Assembly (NCBI GenBank): GCA_937897365.1
Contig: CALCOP010000155.1
Coordinates: forward strand, 1-34,906
DNA length: 34,906 nt
Reading direction: 5' to 3'
Source: an uncultured euryarchaeote
GTDB taxonomy: Archaea; Thermoplasmatota; Poseidoniia; Poseidoniales; Poseidoniaceae
Shown: positions 2,164 through 8,900 of the stretch, piece after piece
Position numbering within the stretch: position 1 is the first letter of the stretch
How the letters are laid out: every line of letters starts with the position of its first letter
Made by a program: the position numbers and the translations under genes
The notes under the pieces: generated by a model
What the model was told of the DNA's origin: nothing
Seen by the model: only the letters and a program-made list of their open reading frames with translations
Database searches by the model: none

Positions 2164-4332
2164 TTACAATCGATTGGAAATAATACTCCAACCTACCAAT
2201 CGGCCCTCTTCAGCGTCTGCAAGAAGATTCAGTTGATGGTGTTCATCGTTTTCGTCCCAAGAACGAGAGATGTCCATGGTTACCGCTCCGTCTCCTCCAT
2301 CGCCAATTTGTGAAAGAAGTGAACCAATGTCATTGCCGGGGACTGCGATTAAGTAACCAACTTGGACATCGTCTTGATACTCACCAGAGGATGTAAAAAA
2401 GCGGTCATTTCCAAACAAGACATTGTAGCGAGATGAATCAGAAAATCGTGATTCAAGTTTGGTGATATTGAGGGTTTTTGGAATTGAATCACGGTTGTAC
2501 GAAGTTGAATCCAAATCTCCTCTTTTATCATAAACGCAATTGTCTTCATTTGGCGTCCCAGTCAAATTAAATTGCACCCATCCTGCTTGTTCGTCCGCCG
2601 CCACCCATGAGAGATTCCATTGTGAAGATGTTGAGGAAATTTGCGTTGTTGTTCCGCGCCAAATGTAACCGTTTTCTTCCAAAGCACGAGATGCTCCCGG
2701 AGCAATAGAATTTGGCCAGTGGTCAAAGCACGAAAGAGCGTCTTCAAAGGTATGCTGGCGAAGTGTCGAATCGTCTGGCATGTGAAGGTCATATTCGCCC
2801 CATGTTTCTAATTCACTGCTTGAAGGACCCAAGAGATTCGCTTGGGGTTTAGAATCATAGGAAAGGCCAAGGTCGAGTTGTTTTTCTCCACGTTGAAGAG
2901 TGAGTTTGGAAAACGTATGGCGTAACTCTAATTCCCCTTCTGGCAATACATAGTCGTTGAGTAATTGCGAGGTAGGAGAACAGCCGGATTGACTCGTCTG
3001 TGATTCAGAAATTAACACGTCAACTGTTTGTTTCGCGGCCCAAGGATTACCCTCTTCAACCCACAGATTCATGGTAGCTGAGCCCAAACAATACGCCTCG
3101 ATATCATGATGGGTAGCAACGATTTTCCAAACCATCTCACCACCAAACTCATCATTTCCAATAACGCGCCAATCCCAGCCAAGGTTACTGCCTGTAGCGC
3201 CATTATCGATTAAATCATTTGCGAAAAGGTGCTGCAGTTCTACCGGTTGCATCATTAACGCAAGACCGGGTGCAAGGGTCTCAAGTCCACCGAGTAGGCC
3301 GCCTACACCATAACTCATGGTTGTTCCATGGTATTTACCAATTGGAGAAGGCAAGTCAAATCCCCAATCCAACTGCGTTGCTTTCGTATCCTGGTTTCGT
3401 AACTCTGTATATGTTGTTGAGGTCAAGTCTGCTGTTCCTGAACCTGTAATGGCTCCGAACTCACAAACAGTGCCAAGTGAAAGATGTCGATTGACTCGGA
3501 AGGGGTCAAGGGAATTGGTATTTACAGTTTCAACTGATAACCATTCAGCGCCCATACCACCGACAATGCGAACCGCTCCTCGTCGGTCATTTGACCCTTC
3601 ATTGACTAATTCACTCGTACCACCTTCAGTGATAGAAAGCCCACCTATTCCACCAAAATCAATTGAAATCTTACAGATGTCGTCCTCAGTTTCTAATTGA
3701 TCCATAACCAATTCAACAAAACCCTCTGTAGCGATAAAGGTCGCTAAACCATCATTATCGCCATTGATTTCGTATTGCATACTGTCGCCATAACGTAACG
3801 ATTCAGCAGTAAAAGAATCGAGCTGGTTGCCAAGATAGTAATATCCGCCGGCGCCAAGGATGATGAGGGTGAGAAGTACTGCAGCAACCTGGGGTCTGCG
3901 AACAATATCAAGAAGCGTTGCTGGCCCATCGCTCACCGACTTTTTCTTTTCTTTCGGTTGGGTTTTCTTAGAGACCTTTGCAGGCTCTAAATCCATGATT
4001 TCGGCATCGAGAATCTCAGCATCAAGGACTTTGGATTCAGTTGGAGATTTTTGTTGCTCGACAATTTCAACGGTTTCAGAAGGCGTTATCGTTTCTTCAT
4101 CCTCGAGGGAAAGAACGATTTCCGATTTCGATTCCAGAACTGGTGTTTTCTCAGGCTCGGAGTCTGAGAGGAGGGTTTCTTCTTCGGGCAATCCAACCTC
4201 TTTATTTGTAAGGCCCGATTCAAGAAGACGTTCAACAAGATCTGACTTCTTGCCGGAGGTTGGTAAATCGTTGAGGATGCAAAGCGCTTTGAGTTTCGCA
4301 ACCGTCAAAGTCGATGTTTGCTCACCCGACAT
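2164..4332 (-). CDS. SAP-domain membrane protein (N-terminal SAP, acidic linker, single TM, large Cys-containing ectodomain)
   Basis: LTVAKLKALCILNDLPTSGKKSDLVERL matches the SAP consensus; TM AAVLLTLIILGAGGYYYL; 722 aa. Confidence 0.75.
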   Translation of the reverse strand: MSGEQTSTLTVAKLKALCILNDLPTSGKKSDLVERLLESGLTNKEVGLPEEETLLSDSEPEKTPVLESKSEIVLSLEDEETITPSETVEIVEQQKSPTESKVLDAEILDAEIMDLEPAKVSKKTQPKEKKKSVSDGPATLLDIVRRPQVAAVLLTLIILGAGGYYYLGNQLDSFTAESLRYGDSMQYEINGDNDGLATFIATEGFVELVMDQLETEDDICKISIDFGGIGGLSITEGGTSELVNEGSNDRRGAVRIVGGMGAEWLSVETVNTNSLDPFRVNRHLSLGTVCEFGAITGSGTADLTSTTYTELRNQDTKATQLDWGFDLPSPIGKYHGTTMSYGVGGLLGGLETLAPGLALMMQPVELQHLFANDLIDNGATGSNLGWDWRVIGNDEFGGEMVWKIVATHHDIEAYCLGSATMNLWVEEGNPWAAKQTVDVLISESQTSQSGCSPTSQLLNDYVLPEGELELRHTFSKLTLQRGEKQLDLGLSYDSKPQANLLGPSSSELETWGEYDLHMPDDSTLRQHTFEDALSCFDHWPNSIAPGASRALEENGYIWRGTTTQISSTSSQWNLSWVAADEQAGWVQFNLTGTPNEDNCVYDKRGDLDSTSYNRDSIPKTLNITKLESRFSDSSRYNVLFGNDRFFTSSGEYQDDVQVGYLIAVPGNDIGSLLSQIGDGGDGAVTMDISRSWDENDEHHQLNLLADAEEGRLVGWSIISNRL

Positions 4333-4429: not shown

Positions 4430-5488
4430 TTAGCCCTCATACGGAACATATGAACCTTCAGAGTTTTGCACATAAACGGTCTGCTCATAACTACCATCTG
4501 GTAATTTTTTGTAGAAATATCCGCCTTCAGCCGGTTCAAATGTTGCTTCAGAAGTTGGAGGTGATGGTGCAGTGACCGTATCCATTTCCTGTGACGGTTG
4601 TTCAACAGTAGTTTGCTGTTGTTCGGGAGGAGTGGATGGGGCTGGAGGGCCTGTTGGACCTGGTGCGGGGGGCCCGGTTGGACCAGGTGCAGGAGGACCT
4701 GTTGGACCAGGTGCGGGAGGGCCGCTTGGACCGGCTGCAACCCGAGCATCGGTAAGTGATGCCAAGACCTTCTGTTCAGTAGATTCATGTCCATTTTCAA
4801 GAATCTGTTTTACATGAGCCCCATGTTTTTGTGCCCCTATAAAGGCAAAAGCAGAGAGTGAGAGACAGATTAAACCGAATATTCCACCAATGACTTGGTT
4901 AGGCCAAACCTTGCCTTTAACTGTCATGTCGTTGTTGAATGTACCGTCAACCTCGCCGCTGGTTTCATTATAGTACTGGATGATTATACAATACTGACCC
5001 GGATCGACTGAGAACTTGAAGGTGTACTCCTCGCCTTCAATCAAGTCACCTATCGTTTGATACTGGTATGCGTGATTCCCTCCAAGTCTGGCTTCTTCTG
5101 TGAATATACCAAGATTCTGCTGACAGTTATTCATCTTGATAACATATGCGTTTATACTCGTGTTGGAATATGTTGGAGGGTTTACAGCAGTAACGTCGAG
5201 ATGGAGAGGTACATCAAACAAATCATCACCAGCCAGTGAAGGCCCCCACACAAGACCAATGTCCTTTTCTGTCGAATCTGTGAAATCATCGTAATCGGCA
5301 CTGAAAGGCATTGGGAAGAGGGCGAAAGTAAACATCAAAACAGCAATACCAAGCCATAGAAATACATTCCAGCGTGACTTTTTTAATTCATCTTTTCGCT
5401 GGTCAAGCGTCATCGGTTCTTCGGCTTCTTCTTGAGAAGAATCTATGGAATTTTCTTCCTCGTCCGCCACTACACCCGTATCGGTCAT
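4430..5488 (-). CDS. Hypothetical two-TM membrane protein with Pro/Gly-rich cytoplasmic tail
   Basis: 352-aa ORF; TM segments WNVFLWLGIAVLMFTFALF and IGGIFGLICLSLSAFAFIG; GPTGPPAP repeats. Confidence 0.75.
   Translation of the reverse strand: MTDTGVVADEEENSIDSSQEEAEEPMTLDQRKDELKKSRWNVFLWLGIAVLMFTFALFPMPFSADYDDFTDSTEKDIGLVWGPSLAGDDLFDVPLHLDVTAVNPPTYSNTSINAYVIKMNNCQQNLGIFTEEARLGGNHAYQYQTIGDLIEGEEYTFKFSVDPGQYCIIIQYYNETSGEVDGTFNNDMTVKGKVWPNQVIGGIFGLICLSLSAFAFIGAQKHGAHVKQILENGHESTEQKVLASLTDARVAAGPSGPPAPGPTGPPAPGPTGPPAPGPTGPPAPSTPPEQQQTTVEQPSQEMDTVTAPSPPTSEATFEPAEGGYFYKKLPDGSYEQTVYVQNSEGSYVPYEG
4640..4735 (-). repeat. Four tandem 24-nt units encoding GP(S/T)GPPAP
   Basis: GPSGPPAP-GPTGPPAP-GPTGPPAP-GPTGPPAP in the translation; third codon positions diverge between units. 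Confidence 0.85.
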
Positions 5489-5499
5489 GTTAACCCCGA

Positions 5500-5519
5500 T
5501 TTCAAGCGAGCACTTGAAA
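5500..5519. promoter_or_regulatory. Putative bidirectional promoter core / inverted repeat TTTCAAG-N6-CTTGAAA between divergent genes
   Basis: TTGAA centre at 5516 is 27 nt from ATG 5543 (+) and 28 nt from ATG 5488 (-). Confidence 0.5.
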
Positions 5520-5542
5520 GGCGCGACGGTTTCTCGACGAGC

Positions 5543-6784
5543 ATGGAGGAGTCTGGGATGAATCGCGACGAGGGGGCCGACAAAGTTGTCGACCTCCGCT
5601 TAGCAATTCTCTCTCGAGGACCACGCCTTTACAGCACAAGGAGGTTGGTTGAAGAGGCAAAGAAAAGGGGACTCAGCCCCTATGTTGCCGATCCAATGAA
5701 GTTCTCACTCTTCGTTGCTGACGGTCGCATCGACATACTTCATAACGGCGAACCGTTCAGTTATGATGCGGTTATTCCCCGAATTGGACATTCAATCACG
5801 AAACATGGGGTAGCGGTCTTGAGGCACCTTGAACAATTGGGCATTTGGACTGCAAATACCGGGGCTGGTATTCTGAAAAGTCGGGACAAACTCCATGCAT
5901 CACAGATTTTAGCAAGAAATCGTATACCTGTTCCGCGAACGACGTATGTTCGTGACATCATCGATGTTGAAACGGCTGTGGATTTTGTCGGAGGATTGCC
6001 AGTTGTGATTAAAGTCACACAGGGCACTCAAGGTCAAGGCGTGTTTTTACGACATACAATACGTGAGGCTCGTAACCTTGTTCAAGGATTGTTACTTACA
6101 GGTCGTTCAATTTTAATTCAAGAGTACATTGCTGAGTCACACGGAAAGGATATTCGGGCCTTGGTGGTTGGAGACAGAGTTGTTGCAAGCATGCGTAGGC
6201 GTGCACGTGGCCGAGAATTTCGCAGCAACTACCACTTGAATGGAACTGTTGAAAACGTTGATCTGCCAAAAGAATTTGAAGAGGCGGCATGTCGTGCTGC
6301 ACGTGTTCTCGGCCTGCATGTTGCCGGAGTAGACCTACTTGAATCGACCAATGGACCCTTGGTTTTGGAAGTCAATTCCTCTCCTGGACTTGAAGGAATT
6401 GAGAAAGCAAGTGGAGTCAATGTTGCTGGAGAAATTATCGACTATGTGACCAGTGAAACCGCTTTCTCTGAAGTTGACCTTGACCAGTTACTTCGAACCG
6501 TGCCCGGAGCAGGCGTACTTTCCCTGCAGATTCGAAACCATCCTGTGTTGGTCGGACAACCTCTTGCGAGATTATTCAAACCAAATGTCGAAATCCCCGT
6601 TTTCGCACTGTCACGTGACAACAGCTTACTGTGGAACCCCAGTGATGAACTGCAATTACGTTACGAAGATGTTCTCATCTGTTATGGTGAACTCACTGAA
6701 TTGAGAAGTTCCCTACGCCAGGCAATGCTTGAAGTCCCTCAGCAAGCGTTTGATATCCCTTCATCCGAAGAAACGAATGCTTGA
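5543..6784 (+). CDS. rimK: RimK-family ATP-grasp alpha-L-glutamate ligase with C-terminal RCK_C/TrkA-C-like extension
   Basis: LYSTRRLVEEA, DAVIPRIG, SRDKL, GTQGQGV, QEYI, DIRALVVG, EFRSNYH and LEVNSSPGLEGIE motifs. Extra ~110 aa (HPVLVGQPL...PSDELQLRYEDVL). Start 5543 (alternative 5558) chosen because the track start at 5432 overlaps the divergent gene. Confidence 0.85.
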   Translation: MEESGMNRDEGADKVVDLRLAILSRGPRLYSTRRLVEEAKKRGLSPYVADPMKFSLFVADGRIDILHNGEPFSYDAVIPRIGHSITKHGVAVLRHLEQLGIWTANTGAGILKSRDKLHASQILARNRIPVPRTTYVRDIIDVETAVDFVGGLPVVIKVTQGTQGQGVFLRHTIREARNLVQGLLLTGRSILIQEYIAESHGKDIRALVVGDRVVASMRRRARGREFRSNYHLNGTVENVDLPKEFEEAACRAARVLGLHVAGVDLLESTNGPLVLEVNSSPGLEGIEKASGVNVAGEIIDYVTSETAFSEVDLDQLLRTVPGAGVLSLQIRNHPVLVGQPLARLFKPNVEIPVFALSRDNSLLWNPSDELQLRYEDVLICYGELTELRSSLRQAMLEVPQQAFDIPSSEETNA

Positions 6785-6834
6785 CTCGGCGATGGAAAAA
6801 AGGGGTATTACTCGAATCCTCAAACGATAGAACG

Positions 6835-7019
6835 CGCGGTGGTTTGATATGGTAGTCCGTCTTCTTCCCTCTTGCTCTACGGAGCACGGGATGCACACTC
6901 GCCCTAGGCGGGAGGCGGTGAACGCCAATGAATATGCGGAGAAGAGAGGAGCGAAATCGCAAGGCTTTGAGGCCAAGCCAAATGCGGCTTAACAACGCCT
7001 CAGTGGCGCTTCCACCGCG
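6835..7019 (+). ncRNA. Candidate structured RNA (unknown class) upstream of xerA
   Basis: Terminal helix CGCGGTGG (6835-6842)/CCACCGCG (7012-7019), a cUACGg tetraloop hairpin and at least four further stems; about 57% GC by hand count over 6841-7020. Strand inferred from the UNCG loop. Confidence 0.45.
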
Positions 7020-7029
7020 TTTGACACAC

Positions 7030-8022
7030 ATGCAAAATCTGCCCTGGTTTGAATGCTATATGCAGACCTTAAAAGCTGAAAATAAATCACAAAATACTCA
7101 GAAATCTTATGCCAGCGGACTTCGTGCTTTGATTGAGACTACGCTACCGAATGAAAATGTCCTTTCCGAAAGAGATTATCAAGAAATGACGGTCTTCGAA
7201 CTCGCAGAAAGAATGGAACCACTCAACGGCAGAATTGATCGATGGACGCACGGACTTTCCGATCTCCGTCCTACGACATATAACGCTCGCCTCGCAGCCG
7301 CACGTCATTTATTGAAATGGTTGGGGCATAGGTGGCCAGACCATTTGGTTCGGGCACGAACTGGAAAGCGACTTCCCCGAACTTTGAATCGAAGAGAAAT
7401 GACAATGGTTTTGGAAGCTTCTGCGAAAAGTGAAGACCCCGTTGCATCAATCGTGGTTACTATGATGCTCGACACGGGTTTGCGTGTGAGTGAAGTTTGT
7501 AATCTCAACCGAAATGACATCGACCTCGAGGATGGCTCTGCTCGTGTCTACGGCGGCAAGGGTGACAAGGATCGATTGGTACTCTTTACTCGGCGAACGC
7601 TTGAGCGAATCCATGCATGGATTCCCATTCGCGATGCTCGCGTGCGAGATGATGATTTTGCTTTCCTTTTGAATTCCGCTGGAAGACGCCTCCAACCTCG
7701 TGGAGTCCAACGATTGATGGACTCACTTGCCCAAGATGCTGGCCTTCCAAAAGGCAAATTGACACCTCACGTTTTGCGTCACAATTTTGCTACGGGACTC
7801 TTGGAAAGAGGAGCGGACTTAGTGACCATTCAACGACTACTCGGCCATTCGAGCATAGCAACGACGCGAGTATATCTTGAGATATCAGACCAAACATTGC
7901 GTGAAGTCTATCACCGAGCTCAAGCAACTCGCGAAACGCTTGAATCGGCTGCAGCACGTCCAGAAGATGAGCAGGAACTCATTGATACGACACCTTCAAC
8001 CAGTTCCATTGGAATCGAGTGA
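7030..8022 (+). CDS. xerA: XerA/XerC-D family tyrosine recombinase
   Basis: Catalytic R-K-H-R-H-Y set: TGLRVSE, GKGDKDR, HVLRHNFAT, LGHSS, TRVY. N-terminal SAM-like domain (KSQNTQKSY). Start at ATG 7030 preferred; the ORF is open from 6928. Confidence 0.85.
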   Translation: MQNLPWFECYMQTLKAENKSQNTQKSYASGLRALIETTLPNENVLSERDYQEMTVFELAERMEPLNGRIDRWTHGLSDLRPTTYNARLAAARHLLKWLGHRWPDHLVRARTGKRLPRTLNRREMTMVLEASAKSEDPVASIVVTMMLDTGLRVSEVCNLNRNDIDLEDGSARVYGGKGDKDRLVLFTRRTLERIHAWIPIRDARVRDDDFAFLLNSAGRRLQPRGVQRLMDSLAQDAGLPKGKLTPHVLRHNFATGLLERGADLVTIQRLLGHSSIATTRVYLEISDQTLREVYHRAQATRETLESAAARPEDEQELIDTTPSTSSIGIE

Positions 8023-8247: not shown

Positions 8248-8799
8248 TCACTTCTTCGCTTTCTTGAACCAAGACATTTTCGAAATGGGCATAGACTTTG
8301 ACGGACCAATTTTTCTGGTTTCCTTGGAATCTTCCTTCTTAGATTTCGCATCTTTGGATTTACTTGCTAAATTTTTCGCCTTTTCAGCAACCTTTTTTGC
8401 AGTTGTCTTGGCTTTGGTTGCGGCTGCTTTCGCCTTAGCAGGTGCCTCTTTCGCAGCTGATTTCGACTTGGAAGTCGCTTTTTTAGCTGCCGTCTTTGAA
8501 GTTGCGGCCGCTTTCTTAGCCGCACTTACAGATTTCTTAGCAGTAGATTTGGTTGCGCTTTTCGCCTTGGATGCAGCTTTTTTTGCTACGCCCGACGCTT
8601 TATCCGCGGCCTTCGCTGCAGCGCTAACTTTCTTAGCAACCGCTGCACTAAGACCTGCATCTTGGAGTTTTTTTGAACCGGCAGAAGCGACTTTGGAAAC
8701 AGTATCAATTTTAGCACTGATCAATTTTTTTGCAGTTGCAGCCCCAATTCCTGGGAGTGCAGTTAACTTTTCAATTTTTGAATTACCCTTTGCAGACAT
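8248..8799 (-). CDS. Helix-hairpin-helix protein with long Lys/Ala-rich histone-H1/Hc1-like tail
   Basis: LTALPGIGAATAKKL HhH motif followed by ~110 aa of KKAA/AKK repeats; GGTGA Shine-Dalgarno before ATG 8799. Confidence 0.75.
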   Translation of the reverse strand: MSAKGNSKIEKLTALPGIGAATAKKLISAKIDTVSKVASAGSKKLQDAGLSAAVAKKVSAAAKAADKASGVAKKAASKAKSATKSTAKKSVSAAKKAAATSKTAAKKATSKSKSAAKEAPAKAKAAATKAKTTAKKVAEKAKNLASKSKDAKSKKEDSKETRKIGPSKSMPISKMSWFKKAKK

Positions 8800-8900
8800 A
8801 GGCTCACCGGTCACTCCATGAGGATGGAACACATCAATTCTTCTCTTCACTCATTTTGAGAAAGGGTTGACTTGATGAAGTTTAAACCAACCCGTAAGAC

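Follow-up and report, generated by a model that had tools for sequence, protein, structure and literature searches.

The window analysed here is a stretch of 34,906 nucleotides (nt), the forward strand of contig CALCOP010000155.1 in assembly GCA_937897365.1, from an uncultured euryarchaeote of the order Poseidoniales. It carries a rimK-like gene and, downstream of it, the gene for a XerA-like tyrosine recombinase (xerA); the subject of this study is the short piece of DNA that joins the two. An earlier note, made from the letters of this DNA, had placed there a single RNA domain of about 190 nt (6831-7022), closed by pairing of its two ends. We found that these positions hold three successive parts, namely the promoter of xerA, a structured 5' leader of the xerA mRNA of about 55 nt (6873-6927, plus strand), and a translated N-terminal extension of the recombinase. 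This anatomy, taken as a whole, is very probable.

The window genome is a draft that is 86% complete, and no 16S rRNA was found in it. Comparisons within the genus used 30 xer loci fetched from same-genus genomes and placed in an unfitted MAFFT alignment (A1 for the whole block, A2 for the leader only); they are called genus loci below. For wider comparisons, we used two alignments that were fitted to a covariance model, A3 (46 sequences, nine genera) and A6 (62 sequences, two families). A MAFFT alignment of 46 diverse core sequences (A4) had several hairpins out of register and was excluded from the counts. Genomes were searched with two covariance models, R1 for the leader and R3, a broadened model; their E-values are approximate. 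Promoter statistics were taken from 1247 long open reading frames (ORFs) of the window genome, as the position of the hexamer start relative to the ATG.

The recombinase gene is no mobile element but a core gene, present in a single copy and among conserved neighbours. Its product gave a Pfam Phage_integrase match of 122.1 bits (cut-off 27.1), and its closest solved chains are XerA 5hxy (E 1.6e-38) and 4a8e. The best NCBIfam match is recomb_XerA_Arch (NF040815), at 197.8 bits and thus below the cut-off of 220, with residues 43-328 corresponding to profile positions 2-263; because this profile starts at residue 43, the N-terminal extension is extra to the usual core of the XerA family. The earlier note had taken the ATG at 7030 as the likely start and counted about 245 nt between it and the rimK stop codon at 6784. 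The arithmetic was right, but xerA starts at 6928, and the true gap is 143 nt. The ATG at 6928 and its open frame are kept in 29 of the 30 genus loci, and the codon that matches the ATG at 7030 is not ATG in 12 of them (L019-L030), where it reads CTT, CTC, ATC, TTG or similar. Column entropies over the extension in the genus loci are 0.785, 0.483 and 1.305 for the three codon positions, which is a coding signature, and the encoded peptide RKALRPSQxRL...LPPRLxH is conserved, its LPxRL part being found throughout the order. Judged by this codon pattern and by the conserved start, positions 6928-7029, i.e., the 3' half of the earlier domain, are coding, and the start of the xerA gene is corrected from 7030 to 6928. 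It should be noted that in one genus locus (L027) the start codon is ATT, with one base deleted just after it and an in-frame ATG eight codons on that could take over as the start; the leader hairpins are intact in this locus.

On the far side of the leader, positions 6835-6850 are, by their sequence and spacing, a promoter of xerA of the B recognition element (BRE)/TATA type, putative as to factor binding. Measured from the ATG, hexamers of the pattern TT[GCT]A[AT]N pile up at -29 (101 starts) and -30 (61 starts), whereas the background is about 18 at any one position, and 18 of the 52 occurrences of TTGATA in the window genome start at -30 or -29. The sequence TGGTTTGATAT has two other copies in the genome, and in both the distance from the first T of TTGATA to an ATG is exactly 29 nt. 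With the hexamer-to-ATG spacing of leaderless genes, 29-30 nt, applied to xerA, the transcript is predicted to start at about 6873/6874, the first bases of hairpin 1. Of 110 distinct xerA upstream regions, drawn from two families, 107 contained a hexamer of the TATA-like class (TTGATA 54, TTCAAG 18, TTCATA 13, and others), and its distance to the conserved octamer of the leader was 42-44 nt in 96 of the 107 loci. In these loci, the element upstream of the box reads GGTGG, GATGG or GAAGC; genera other than that of the window have GAAGC or GAAGG at this place. These counts also give the promoter hexamer of this organism and its spacing. Features of the locus are collected in Table 1.

Table 1. 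Features of the xerA locus, in window coordinates, and the evidence for each of them.
Feature	Position	Strand	Evidence or remark
Conserved element CGCGGTGG, BRE position	6835..6842	+	Near-invariant C-G-[GA]-T-G-G in 30 genus loci
TATA-like box TTTGATAT, hexamer TTGATA at 6844-6849	6843..6850	+	Genome-wide hexamer spacing
Promoter spacer, variable sequence	6851..6872	+	Least conserved stretch of A1; length constrained
Predicted transcription start, T6873/G6874	6873..6874	+	Promoter spacing
Hairpin 1, (U)GCUC-UACG-GAGC(A)	6873..6886	+	Very 5' end of the predicted mRNA; covariation
Single-stranded linker CGGGAUGCACA, octamer GGGAUGCA at 6888-6895	6887..6897	+	Near-invariance
Hairpin 2, CUCGCC-CUA-GGCGGG	6898..6912	+	Covariation
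Hairpin 3, GGCG-GUGAA-CGCC	6914..6926	+	Pairing; presents the SD-like GGUGA (6917-6921), which starts at -11 from the AUG
XerA-like tyrosine recombinase gene, 364 amino acids	6928..8022	+	NCBIfam, Pfam and solved-chain matches
XerA N-terminal extension, 34 codons before the Met at 7030	6928..7029	+	Conserved ATG, codon-position pattern, conserved peptide

Two observations on promoters stand apart from xerA itself. The window genome appears to be dominated by leaderless mRNAs, with 162 TATA-like hexamers at -29/-30 from the ATG, and a second class of its genes has Shine-Dalgarno (SD)-like words (GGTGA, GGAGG, GAGGT) starting at -13 to -9. In family f3, the xer loci (L103-L135) have a promoter GAGAAGCATTCAAG/T about 45-30 nt before hairpin 1, which is nearly identical across many genera and far more conserved than a generic BRE/TATA promoter would require.

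The leader is more uniform than the coding part beside it, its column entropy (0.25-0.38) being below that of every codon position there. The linker that joins hairpins 1 and 2 is invariant in all 30 genus loci. Among 117 distinct xerA upstream regions, 111 have the octamer consensus GGGAYGCR, and 103 of those 111 read exactly GGGATGCA. We found no conserved pairing partner for the octamer within the mRNA, the best duplexes lying at different places in each of 21 loci, and a comparison to 16S rRNA gave just a chance complementary 6-mer. Hairpin 1, which is G+C-rich, occurs with 27 distinct stem sequences, and its loops are mostly of the UNCG or GNRA kinds. For the 5' strand of hairpin 2, a permissive hairpin finder also returned an alternative pairing with GAGGCGG, which stems from GCG-rich repeats. 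Hairpin 3 carries the SD-like word GGUGA in its last stem pair and loop. This word complements the 16S rRNA 3' end GGAUCACCUCCU of a same-genus genome, and its position, -11, is where SD-like words are most frequent in the window genome (71 cases). GGAGG (6911-6915), another SD-like word, bridges the feet of hairpins 2 and 3. The distance from the octamer to the start codon is 27-52 nt, typically 35-38 nt, with the sole exception of 112 nt in locus L102. Its location downstream of the putative promoter and upstream of a single start codon, with strand and spacing conserved, is as expected of a cis-acting leader.

The secondary structure of this leader is backed by compensatory changes, and it belongs to an RNA of the xer strand. 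In the genus loci, hairpin 1 (6873-6877/6882-6886) is paired in 98.0% of cells and hairpin 2 (6898-6903/6907-6912) in 98.3%, with two compensatory pairs each, and hairpin 3 (6914-6917/6923-6926) is paired in 100% of cells, with no change of sequence. RNAalifold, applied to the genus alignment, keeps just the three hairpins plus weak extras. When the leader-only alignment A2 (30 sequences) is counted as a whole, 99.0% of cells are paired and four pairs are compensatory, compared to 31-51% of cells in controls with slid pairing partners. The figures for A3 are 97.8% paired cells and 11 of 14 compensatory pairs. In A6, 97.1% of cells are paired, compensatory changes are seen at 12 of 14 pairs, and 121 cells are changed on both sides; none of 500 shuffles was as high, and slid controls gave 31-49%. 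Hairpin 1 has compensatory changes at four of its five pairs in A6, and hairpin 2, which is 99.6% paired, at all five modelled pairs. As to the strand, the wobbles in A2 are all of the U (5' side)-G (3' side) type and would be C-A mismatches on the other strand, the UNCG and GNRA loops are of RNA type, and every model match lies on the xer strand.

We then consider the distribution of the element. A blastn search with 6785-7029 found one copy in the window genome; of 36 further genomes of the genus, 32 gave a match (E <= 1.6e-9), which is sharply bounded at about 6830-7020, and the four genus genomes without a match are 65-86% complete. The same search returned no match in the two remaining families of the order. 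In 30 of 30 genus loci, the block is immediately followed by xer, and its upstream neighbour is rimK in 18 of them and a different gene in 12. Because the neighbour changes while the block stays at xer, the block belongs to, and travels with, the recombinase gene. To describe the two arrangements, the upstream gene is rimK-like in L001-L018 and ends with ...WWNG..W.PYGKN in L019-L030, and promoter and leader are unchanged in place.

Model R1 matched 115 of 151 genomes of the family, exactly once in each, including nine of 12 genera and 37 of 38 high-quality genomes. For 46 model matches that were examined, the aligned ATG opens a xer frame of 332-370 amino acids directly in 35; among the others, four are cut by the end of the locus, one has no ATG at this column, and six are weak matches with the xer start further downstream. 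Model R3 matched 123 of 151 genomes of the order (72 of 74 in family f1, 50 of 74 in f3, 0 of 2 in f2), one of them with a weak second match, but, outside the order, 0 of 126 genomes of the phylum. A borderline R3 match in genome G040 (E 0.0027) is not at the xer locus of that genome and is probably spurious. Accordingly, the motif occurs about once per genome, before xerA, and is restricted, in the genomes searched, to one archaeal order, Poseidoniales.

By eye, the genera without a model match and the second family share this architecture, a promoter followed by a hairpin, (A/U)GGGAUGCA(C/G/A), a further hairpin, a purine-rich stretch and the start codon. In the second family, the octamer is found in 27 of 31 loci, the other four having one-base or GGGAAUGGG variants. 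The lack of a model match in g11, g12, g26 and f2 may reflect divergence rather than loss. As a side observation, the octamer is replaced by GGGAAUGGG in L125, L129 and L131 (genus g12, f3) and by GGGAUGGGAC in L106 (f2), in each case beside hairpin-like palindromes. The combination of octamer and hairpins is rare away from the xerA locus: under the same permissive test, both flanking hairpins were found for 105 of 111 xerA octamers versus 16 of 128 octamers in the window genome, the xerA copy included.

With the leader and the coding part delimited, the single closed domain (6831-7022) of the earlier note can be assessed. The complementary segments that it named are all present, and every helix can be drawn. 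The minimum free energy fold of the plus strand recovers most of these helices at -78.4 kcal/mol, with a z-score of -2.81 and 1 of 200 shuffles equal. The minus strand is as good, with z = -3.25 and 0 of 200 shuffles equal. Because both strands fold about equally well, fold energy alone identifies neither the strand nor an RNA. In the 30 genus loci, the closing helix (6835-6842/7012-7019) is paired in 77.5% of cells, with no compensatory changes and with three pairs broken in 12-21 of the sequences. The values are 60.4% for helix 6860-6867/6938-6945, 75.6% for 6951-6953/6958-6960 and 52.8% for 6968-6973/6997-7002; overall, the failed helices are 53-78% paired, with 0-2 pairs each changed on both sides. 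By our own arithmetic, about 0.5 perfect 8-bp inverted repeats are expected by chance within about 250 nt. Of the two strands of the closing helix, the 5' one, CGCGGTGG, coincides with the conserved element that directly precedes the TATA-like box, and the 3' one, CCACCGCG, represents Leu-Pro-Pro-Arg codons. Another long-range pairing, proposed by RNAalifold for GUGG (6839-6842) with the CCAC before 7030, was rejected, as it has one covarying pair, probably from a single event, and one of its strands lies in the promoter.

Conservation of pairing divides the helices of the earlier proposal. Three of its local hairpins (6873-6886, 6898-6912 and 6914-6926) are retained, two of them with compensatory changes, but the closing helix and the other long-range helices break in relatives and are without convincing covariation. 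The extension encoded from 6928 is conserved in orthologues, which makes the 3' 102 nt of the proposed domain coding sequence and refutes the 190-nt model; the 5' 16 nt are promoter. One closed, end-paired non-coding RNA of about 190 nt, whether RNase P-like or a partner of the recombinase, is thus almost certainly wrong, and nothing speaks for a free-standing transcript of this size or for an RNA partner of the recombinase, although the latter is still conceivable for the short leader. The suggestion of a cis-regulatory xerA leader, which the same note had also made, survives for about 55 nt but not for 190 nt. A good-looking 190-nt fold can arise by joining a promoter, a genuine leader and coding sequence.

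One hairpin in the coding part, AAGCC/GGCUU (6975-6990), was considered separately. It is paired in 87.3% of cells in the genus, with varied outer pairs. In the 62 wider sequences, all five pairs are formed in just 20. Of its pairs between synonymous sites, one is enriched (39 of 62, compared to a permutation mean of 26.9 and a maximum of 40) and the other is not (28 of 62, compared to 24.5). As an RNA structure, this hairpin is not established.

Membership in a known RNA family was also considered. No match was found among the 4227 families of Rfam 15 at the gathering score in the whole window, and a search of 6700-7150 at E up to 10 returned just a chance match to the small nucleolar RNA sn2903 in the coding region (16 bits versus 50). 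The Rfam comparison suggested by the earlier note, to archaeal RNase P, signal recognition particle (SRP) and riboswitch families, thus yields no relevant match, and a scan for tRNA and transfer-messenger RNA found none in the window. The note had also pointed out that AGUCCG and CGGCU could pair as in helix P4 of RNase P RNA. These words could indeed mimic P4, which is the likeness to archaeal RNase P RNA. This identity is excluded, since the first word, AGUCCG, belongs to the variable spacer of the promoter and the second, CGGCU, is part of a reading frame, and a canonical RNaseP_arch RNA (227.6 bits, model positions 1-288) is encoded at 2707-3003 of another contig (C187) of the window genome. 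Similarly, SRP RNA was rejected because an Archaea_SRP RNA (128.5 bits) lies on another contig. Riboswitch membership was rejected as well, the motif occurring before one gene and RNAalifold and a duplex scan having found no junction or pseudoknot core. A guide or bridge RNA of the recombinase does not fit a tyrosine recombinase at a single-copy syntenic locus, with loops that are closed tetraloops.

In some bacterial single-recombinase Xer systems, the dif site adjoins the recombinase gene. According to one study of archaeal Xer recombination (PMC2958812), dif consists of two inverted arms of about 11 bp and a spacer of about 6 bp, and in Thermococcales it is not adjacent to xerA. The element resembles dif in being conserved non-coding sequence beside a Xer gene, and TTTGATAT is loosely like the GGATAT of the Pyrococcus abyssi dif arm as given in PMC2958812. 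It differs in that no second inverted arm is present here, the box behaves like the general TATA-like hexamer of the genome, and other genera have TTCAAG or TTCATA in its place. A dif site at the element was rejected, because the inverted repeats in 6780-7035 have arms 72-169 nt apart and none has the 11-6-11 layout. A crude genome scan modelled on the P. abyssi site, which required ATAA-N6-TTAT and arms complementary at 9 or more of their 11 positions, gave 0 hits; in a genome that is 86% complete, this neither finds nor excludes a dif site elsewhere.

We propose that this leader exerts control in cis and serves xerA alone, and we assign to this reading, a xerA-specific structured leader acting in cis, a probability of about 0.6. 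The stems change freely while the unpaired octamer does not, which points to sequence-specific recognition of the octamer by a trans-acting factor. Hairpins 1 and 2 would hold the octamer out as a recognition site for this factor, which would most likely be a protein. Its binding beside the ribosome-binding hairpin could set the level of XerA translation or the lifetime of the mRNA, and the 5'-terminal hairpin may additionally shield the mRNA end. The factor-binding mechanism is tentative, and we would put it at somewhat less than even odds.

Several points weigh against this interpretation. Both the start site and the inclusion of the leader in the xerA transcript are predicted from promoter spacing only. 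The leader alone (6874-6945) folds to the three hairpins, but with a z-score of just -1.31 and 23 of 200 shuffles equal; because of this low value, the case for structure rests on covariation and not on energy. As for the covariation, A3 and A6 were fitted to the model, which biases their pair counts toward structure, and kinship among the genomes makes the samples non-independent, so that the shuffle controls overstate significance. Hairpin 3, invariant in the genus, is missing or different in 22-24 of the 62 rows of A6. No candidate binding factor was found, and four ideas failed: the tail of XerA, an intramolecular partner of the octamer, complementarity to 16S rRNA, and the AUG frame of the octamer. 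Self-binding of XerA by a basic N-terminal tail is not supported, since the tail, basic in the window genus, is acidic or neutral elsewhere among the genera with the RNA motif. The net charge of the segment before LPxRL is -5 to +1 in all f3 loci, and +2 or less in all but one of the loci examined, the exception being L102 (+6), where the start is possibly mispicked. Finally, the invariance of the octamer does not separate recognition as RNA from recognition as DNA.

Other explanations share parts of this evidence. The main rival is that the leader is passive, i.e., that its hairpins stabilise the 5' end against 5'-to-3' decay and fix a low level of translation, with no trans-acting factor involved. 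Such a role is consistent with a hairpin, hairpin 1, at the predicted beginning of the mRNA, with tetraloops of the UNCG and GNRA kinds, which are very stable, and with the placement of GGAGG at the foot of hairpins 2 and 3 and of GGUGA in the stem and loop of hairpin 3. However, a passive leader leaves unexplained why an unpaired octamer is near-invariant across two families (103 of 111 exactly the same) while both stems vary, and why the structure is restricted to one gene in a leaderless-dominated genome; we consider this explanation unlikely. If the octamer, at about +15 to +22, were instead a DNA operator for a transcription factor or for XerA itself, with the hairpins secondary, its fixed distance to the promoter hexamer (42-44 nt in 96 of 107 loci) would be accounted for, and an invariant sequence is expected of a DNA site. 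The flanking stems, however, keep complementarity and not sequence (12 of 14 pairs compensatory), with strand-specific U-G wobbles and RNA-type tetraloops, all of which are needless for a DNA site; moreover, 6780-7035 has no dif-type 11-6-11 inverted repeat, and the octamer is unlike the P. abyssi dif arms shown in PMC2958812. A DNA-level element is therefore very unlikely.

It is similarly improbable that the promoter also, or exclusively, yields a separate trans-acting small RNA of about 45-55 nt, made up of hairpin 1, the octamer and hairpin 2 and perhaps working with the recombinase. Two very stable hairpins around a conserved single strand would make a durable RNA, and the motif is conserved as well as many small RNAs are; against this, it always precedes the xerA start on the same strand (27-52 nt away, 112 nt in L102), has one copy per genome and none away from xerA, and is followed by no T-run or terminator-like feature between hairpin 2 and the AUG. 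A conserved leader beside a ribosome-binding site could also suggest a small-molecule riboswitch, and the AUG within GGGAUGCA, about 18 nt from the predicted 5' end, could suggest a regulatory upstream start codon opening a short frame. Both are extremely unlikely. The motif has a single copy per genome, at the recombinase gene only, neither RNAalifold nor a duplex scan gave a junction or pseudoknot, and no Rfam riboswitch matched. As to the AUG, it lies in frames 0, 1 and 2 relative to xerA in 38, 37 and 34 of 109 sequences, opens frames of 4 to 382 codons, and is absent from four loci that read GGGACGCA.

Returning to the xerA-specific cis-acting leader, a wider proposal is that it is an RNA operator by which the cell, or XerA itself, would couple XerA synthesis to chromosome state or the cell cycle or, in a bolder version, that the leader (hairpin 1, octamer and hairpin 2) is cleaved and kept as an RNA cofactor of XerA. 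We regard this proposal as quite unlikely. If true, either version would make this the first Xer system under RNA control and would add to the very few cis-regulatory RNAs known to span a whole lineage of archaea.

Some neighbouring genes in the window also deserve mention. Just downstream of xerA, a minus-strand ORF (8248-8850) of 200 amino acids has a helix-hairpin-helix-like start (LTALPGIGAATAKKL...) and a long tail of low complexity, rich in Lys, Ala and Ser, which is reminiscent of histone H1-like DNA-binding tails. A 352-amino-acid ORF on the minus strand (4430-5488) has a hydrophobic segment and C-terminal PAPGPTGP repeats, suggesting a proline-rich repeat protein. The rimK-like ORF (5432-6784) is listed with a TTG start but has no RimK domain before residue 55, and its translation probably begins further downstream.

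To our knowledge, few conserved cis-regulatory RNA structures are known in archaea. The leader described here is small, sharply bounded and present in most members of an order of uncultured marine archaea, and we regard it as a new cis-regulatory leader motif, outside all Rfam families. As far as we found, no such element is described for a Xer recombinase gene in the accessible parts of the literature on XerA/dif, on candidate structured RNAs with a recombinase or integrase, on Poseidoniales and on Marine Group II. The two hairpins and the octamer make a compact, testable RNA for the study of how archaea control the enzyme that resolves chromosome dimers.

Comparison to known systems shows both likenesses and differences. 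Structured RNAs are linked to recombinases in mobile elements, e.g., the bridge RNA of IS110 and the omega RNA of IS200/605. The xerA leader is likewise a structured RNA in the leader of a recombinase gene; however, it is far shorter, has no variable guide-like loops, and belongs to a non-mobile tyrosine recombinase gene. Small leader riboswitches, such as preQ1, fluoride and similar ones, resemble it in size (about 45-55 nt) and in their location beside the SD region, whereas the xerA leader is limited to a single gene and copy, gives no hint of a ligand pocket in its two plain tetraloop hairpins, and matches none of the Rfam families. Stabilising hairpins at mRNA 5' ends are known from bacteria, for example in the ompA leader, and a stable hairpin is also found at the predicted first nucleotides of the xerA transcript; unlike these, the xerA leader adds an invariant octamer and a second covarying hairpin, in an archaeon with mostly leaderless mRNAs. 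Known structured mRNA leaders also include autoregulatory or factor-bound ones, such as those of ribosomal-protein genes. Like these, the xerA leader is a short hairpin leader of one gene, conserved order-wide, that displays a conserved single strand beside the ribosome-binding site; unlike them, it belongs to the gene of a tyrosine recombinase that resolves chromosome dimers, and it has no counterpart in Rfam.

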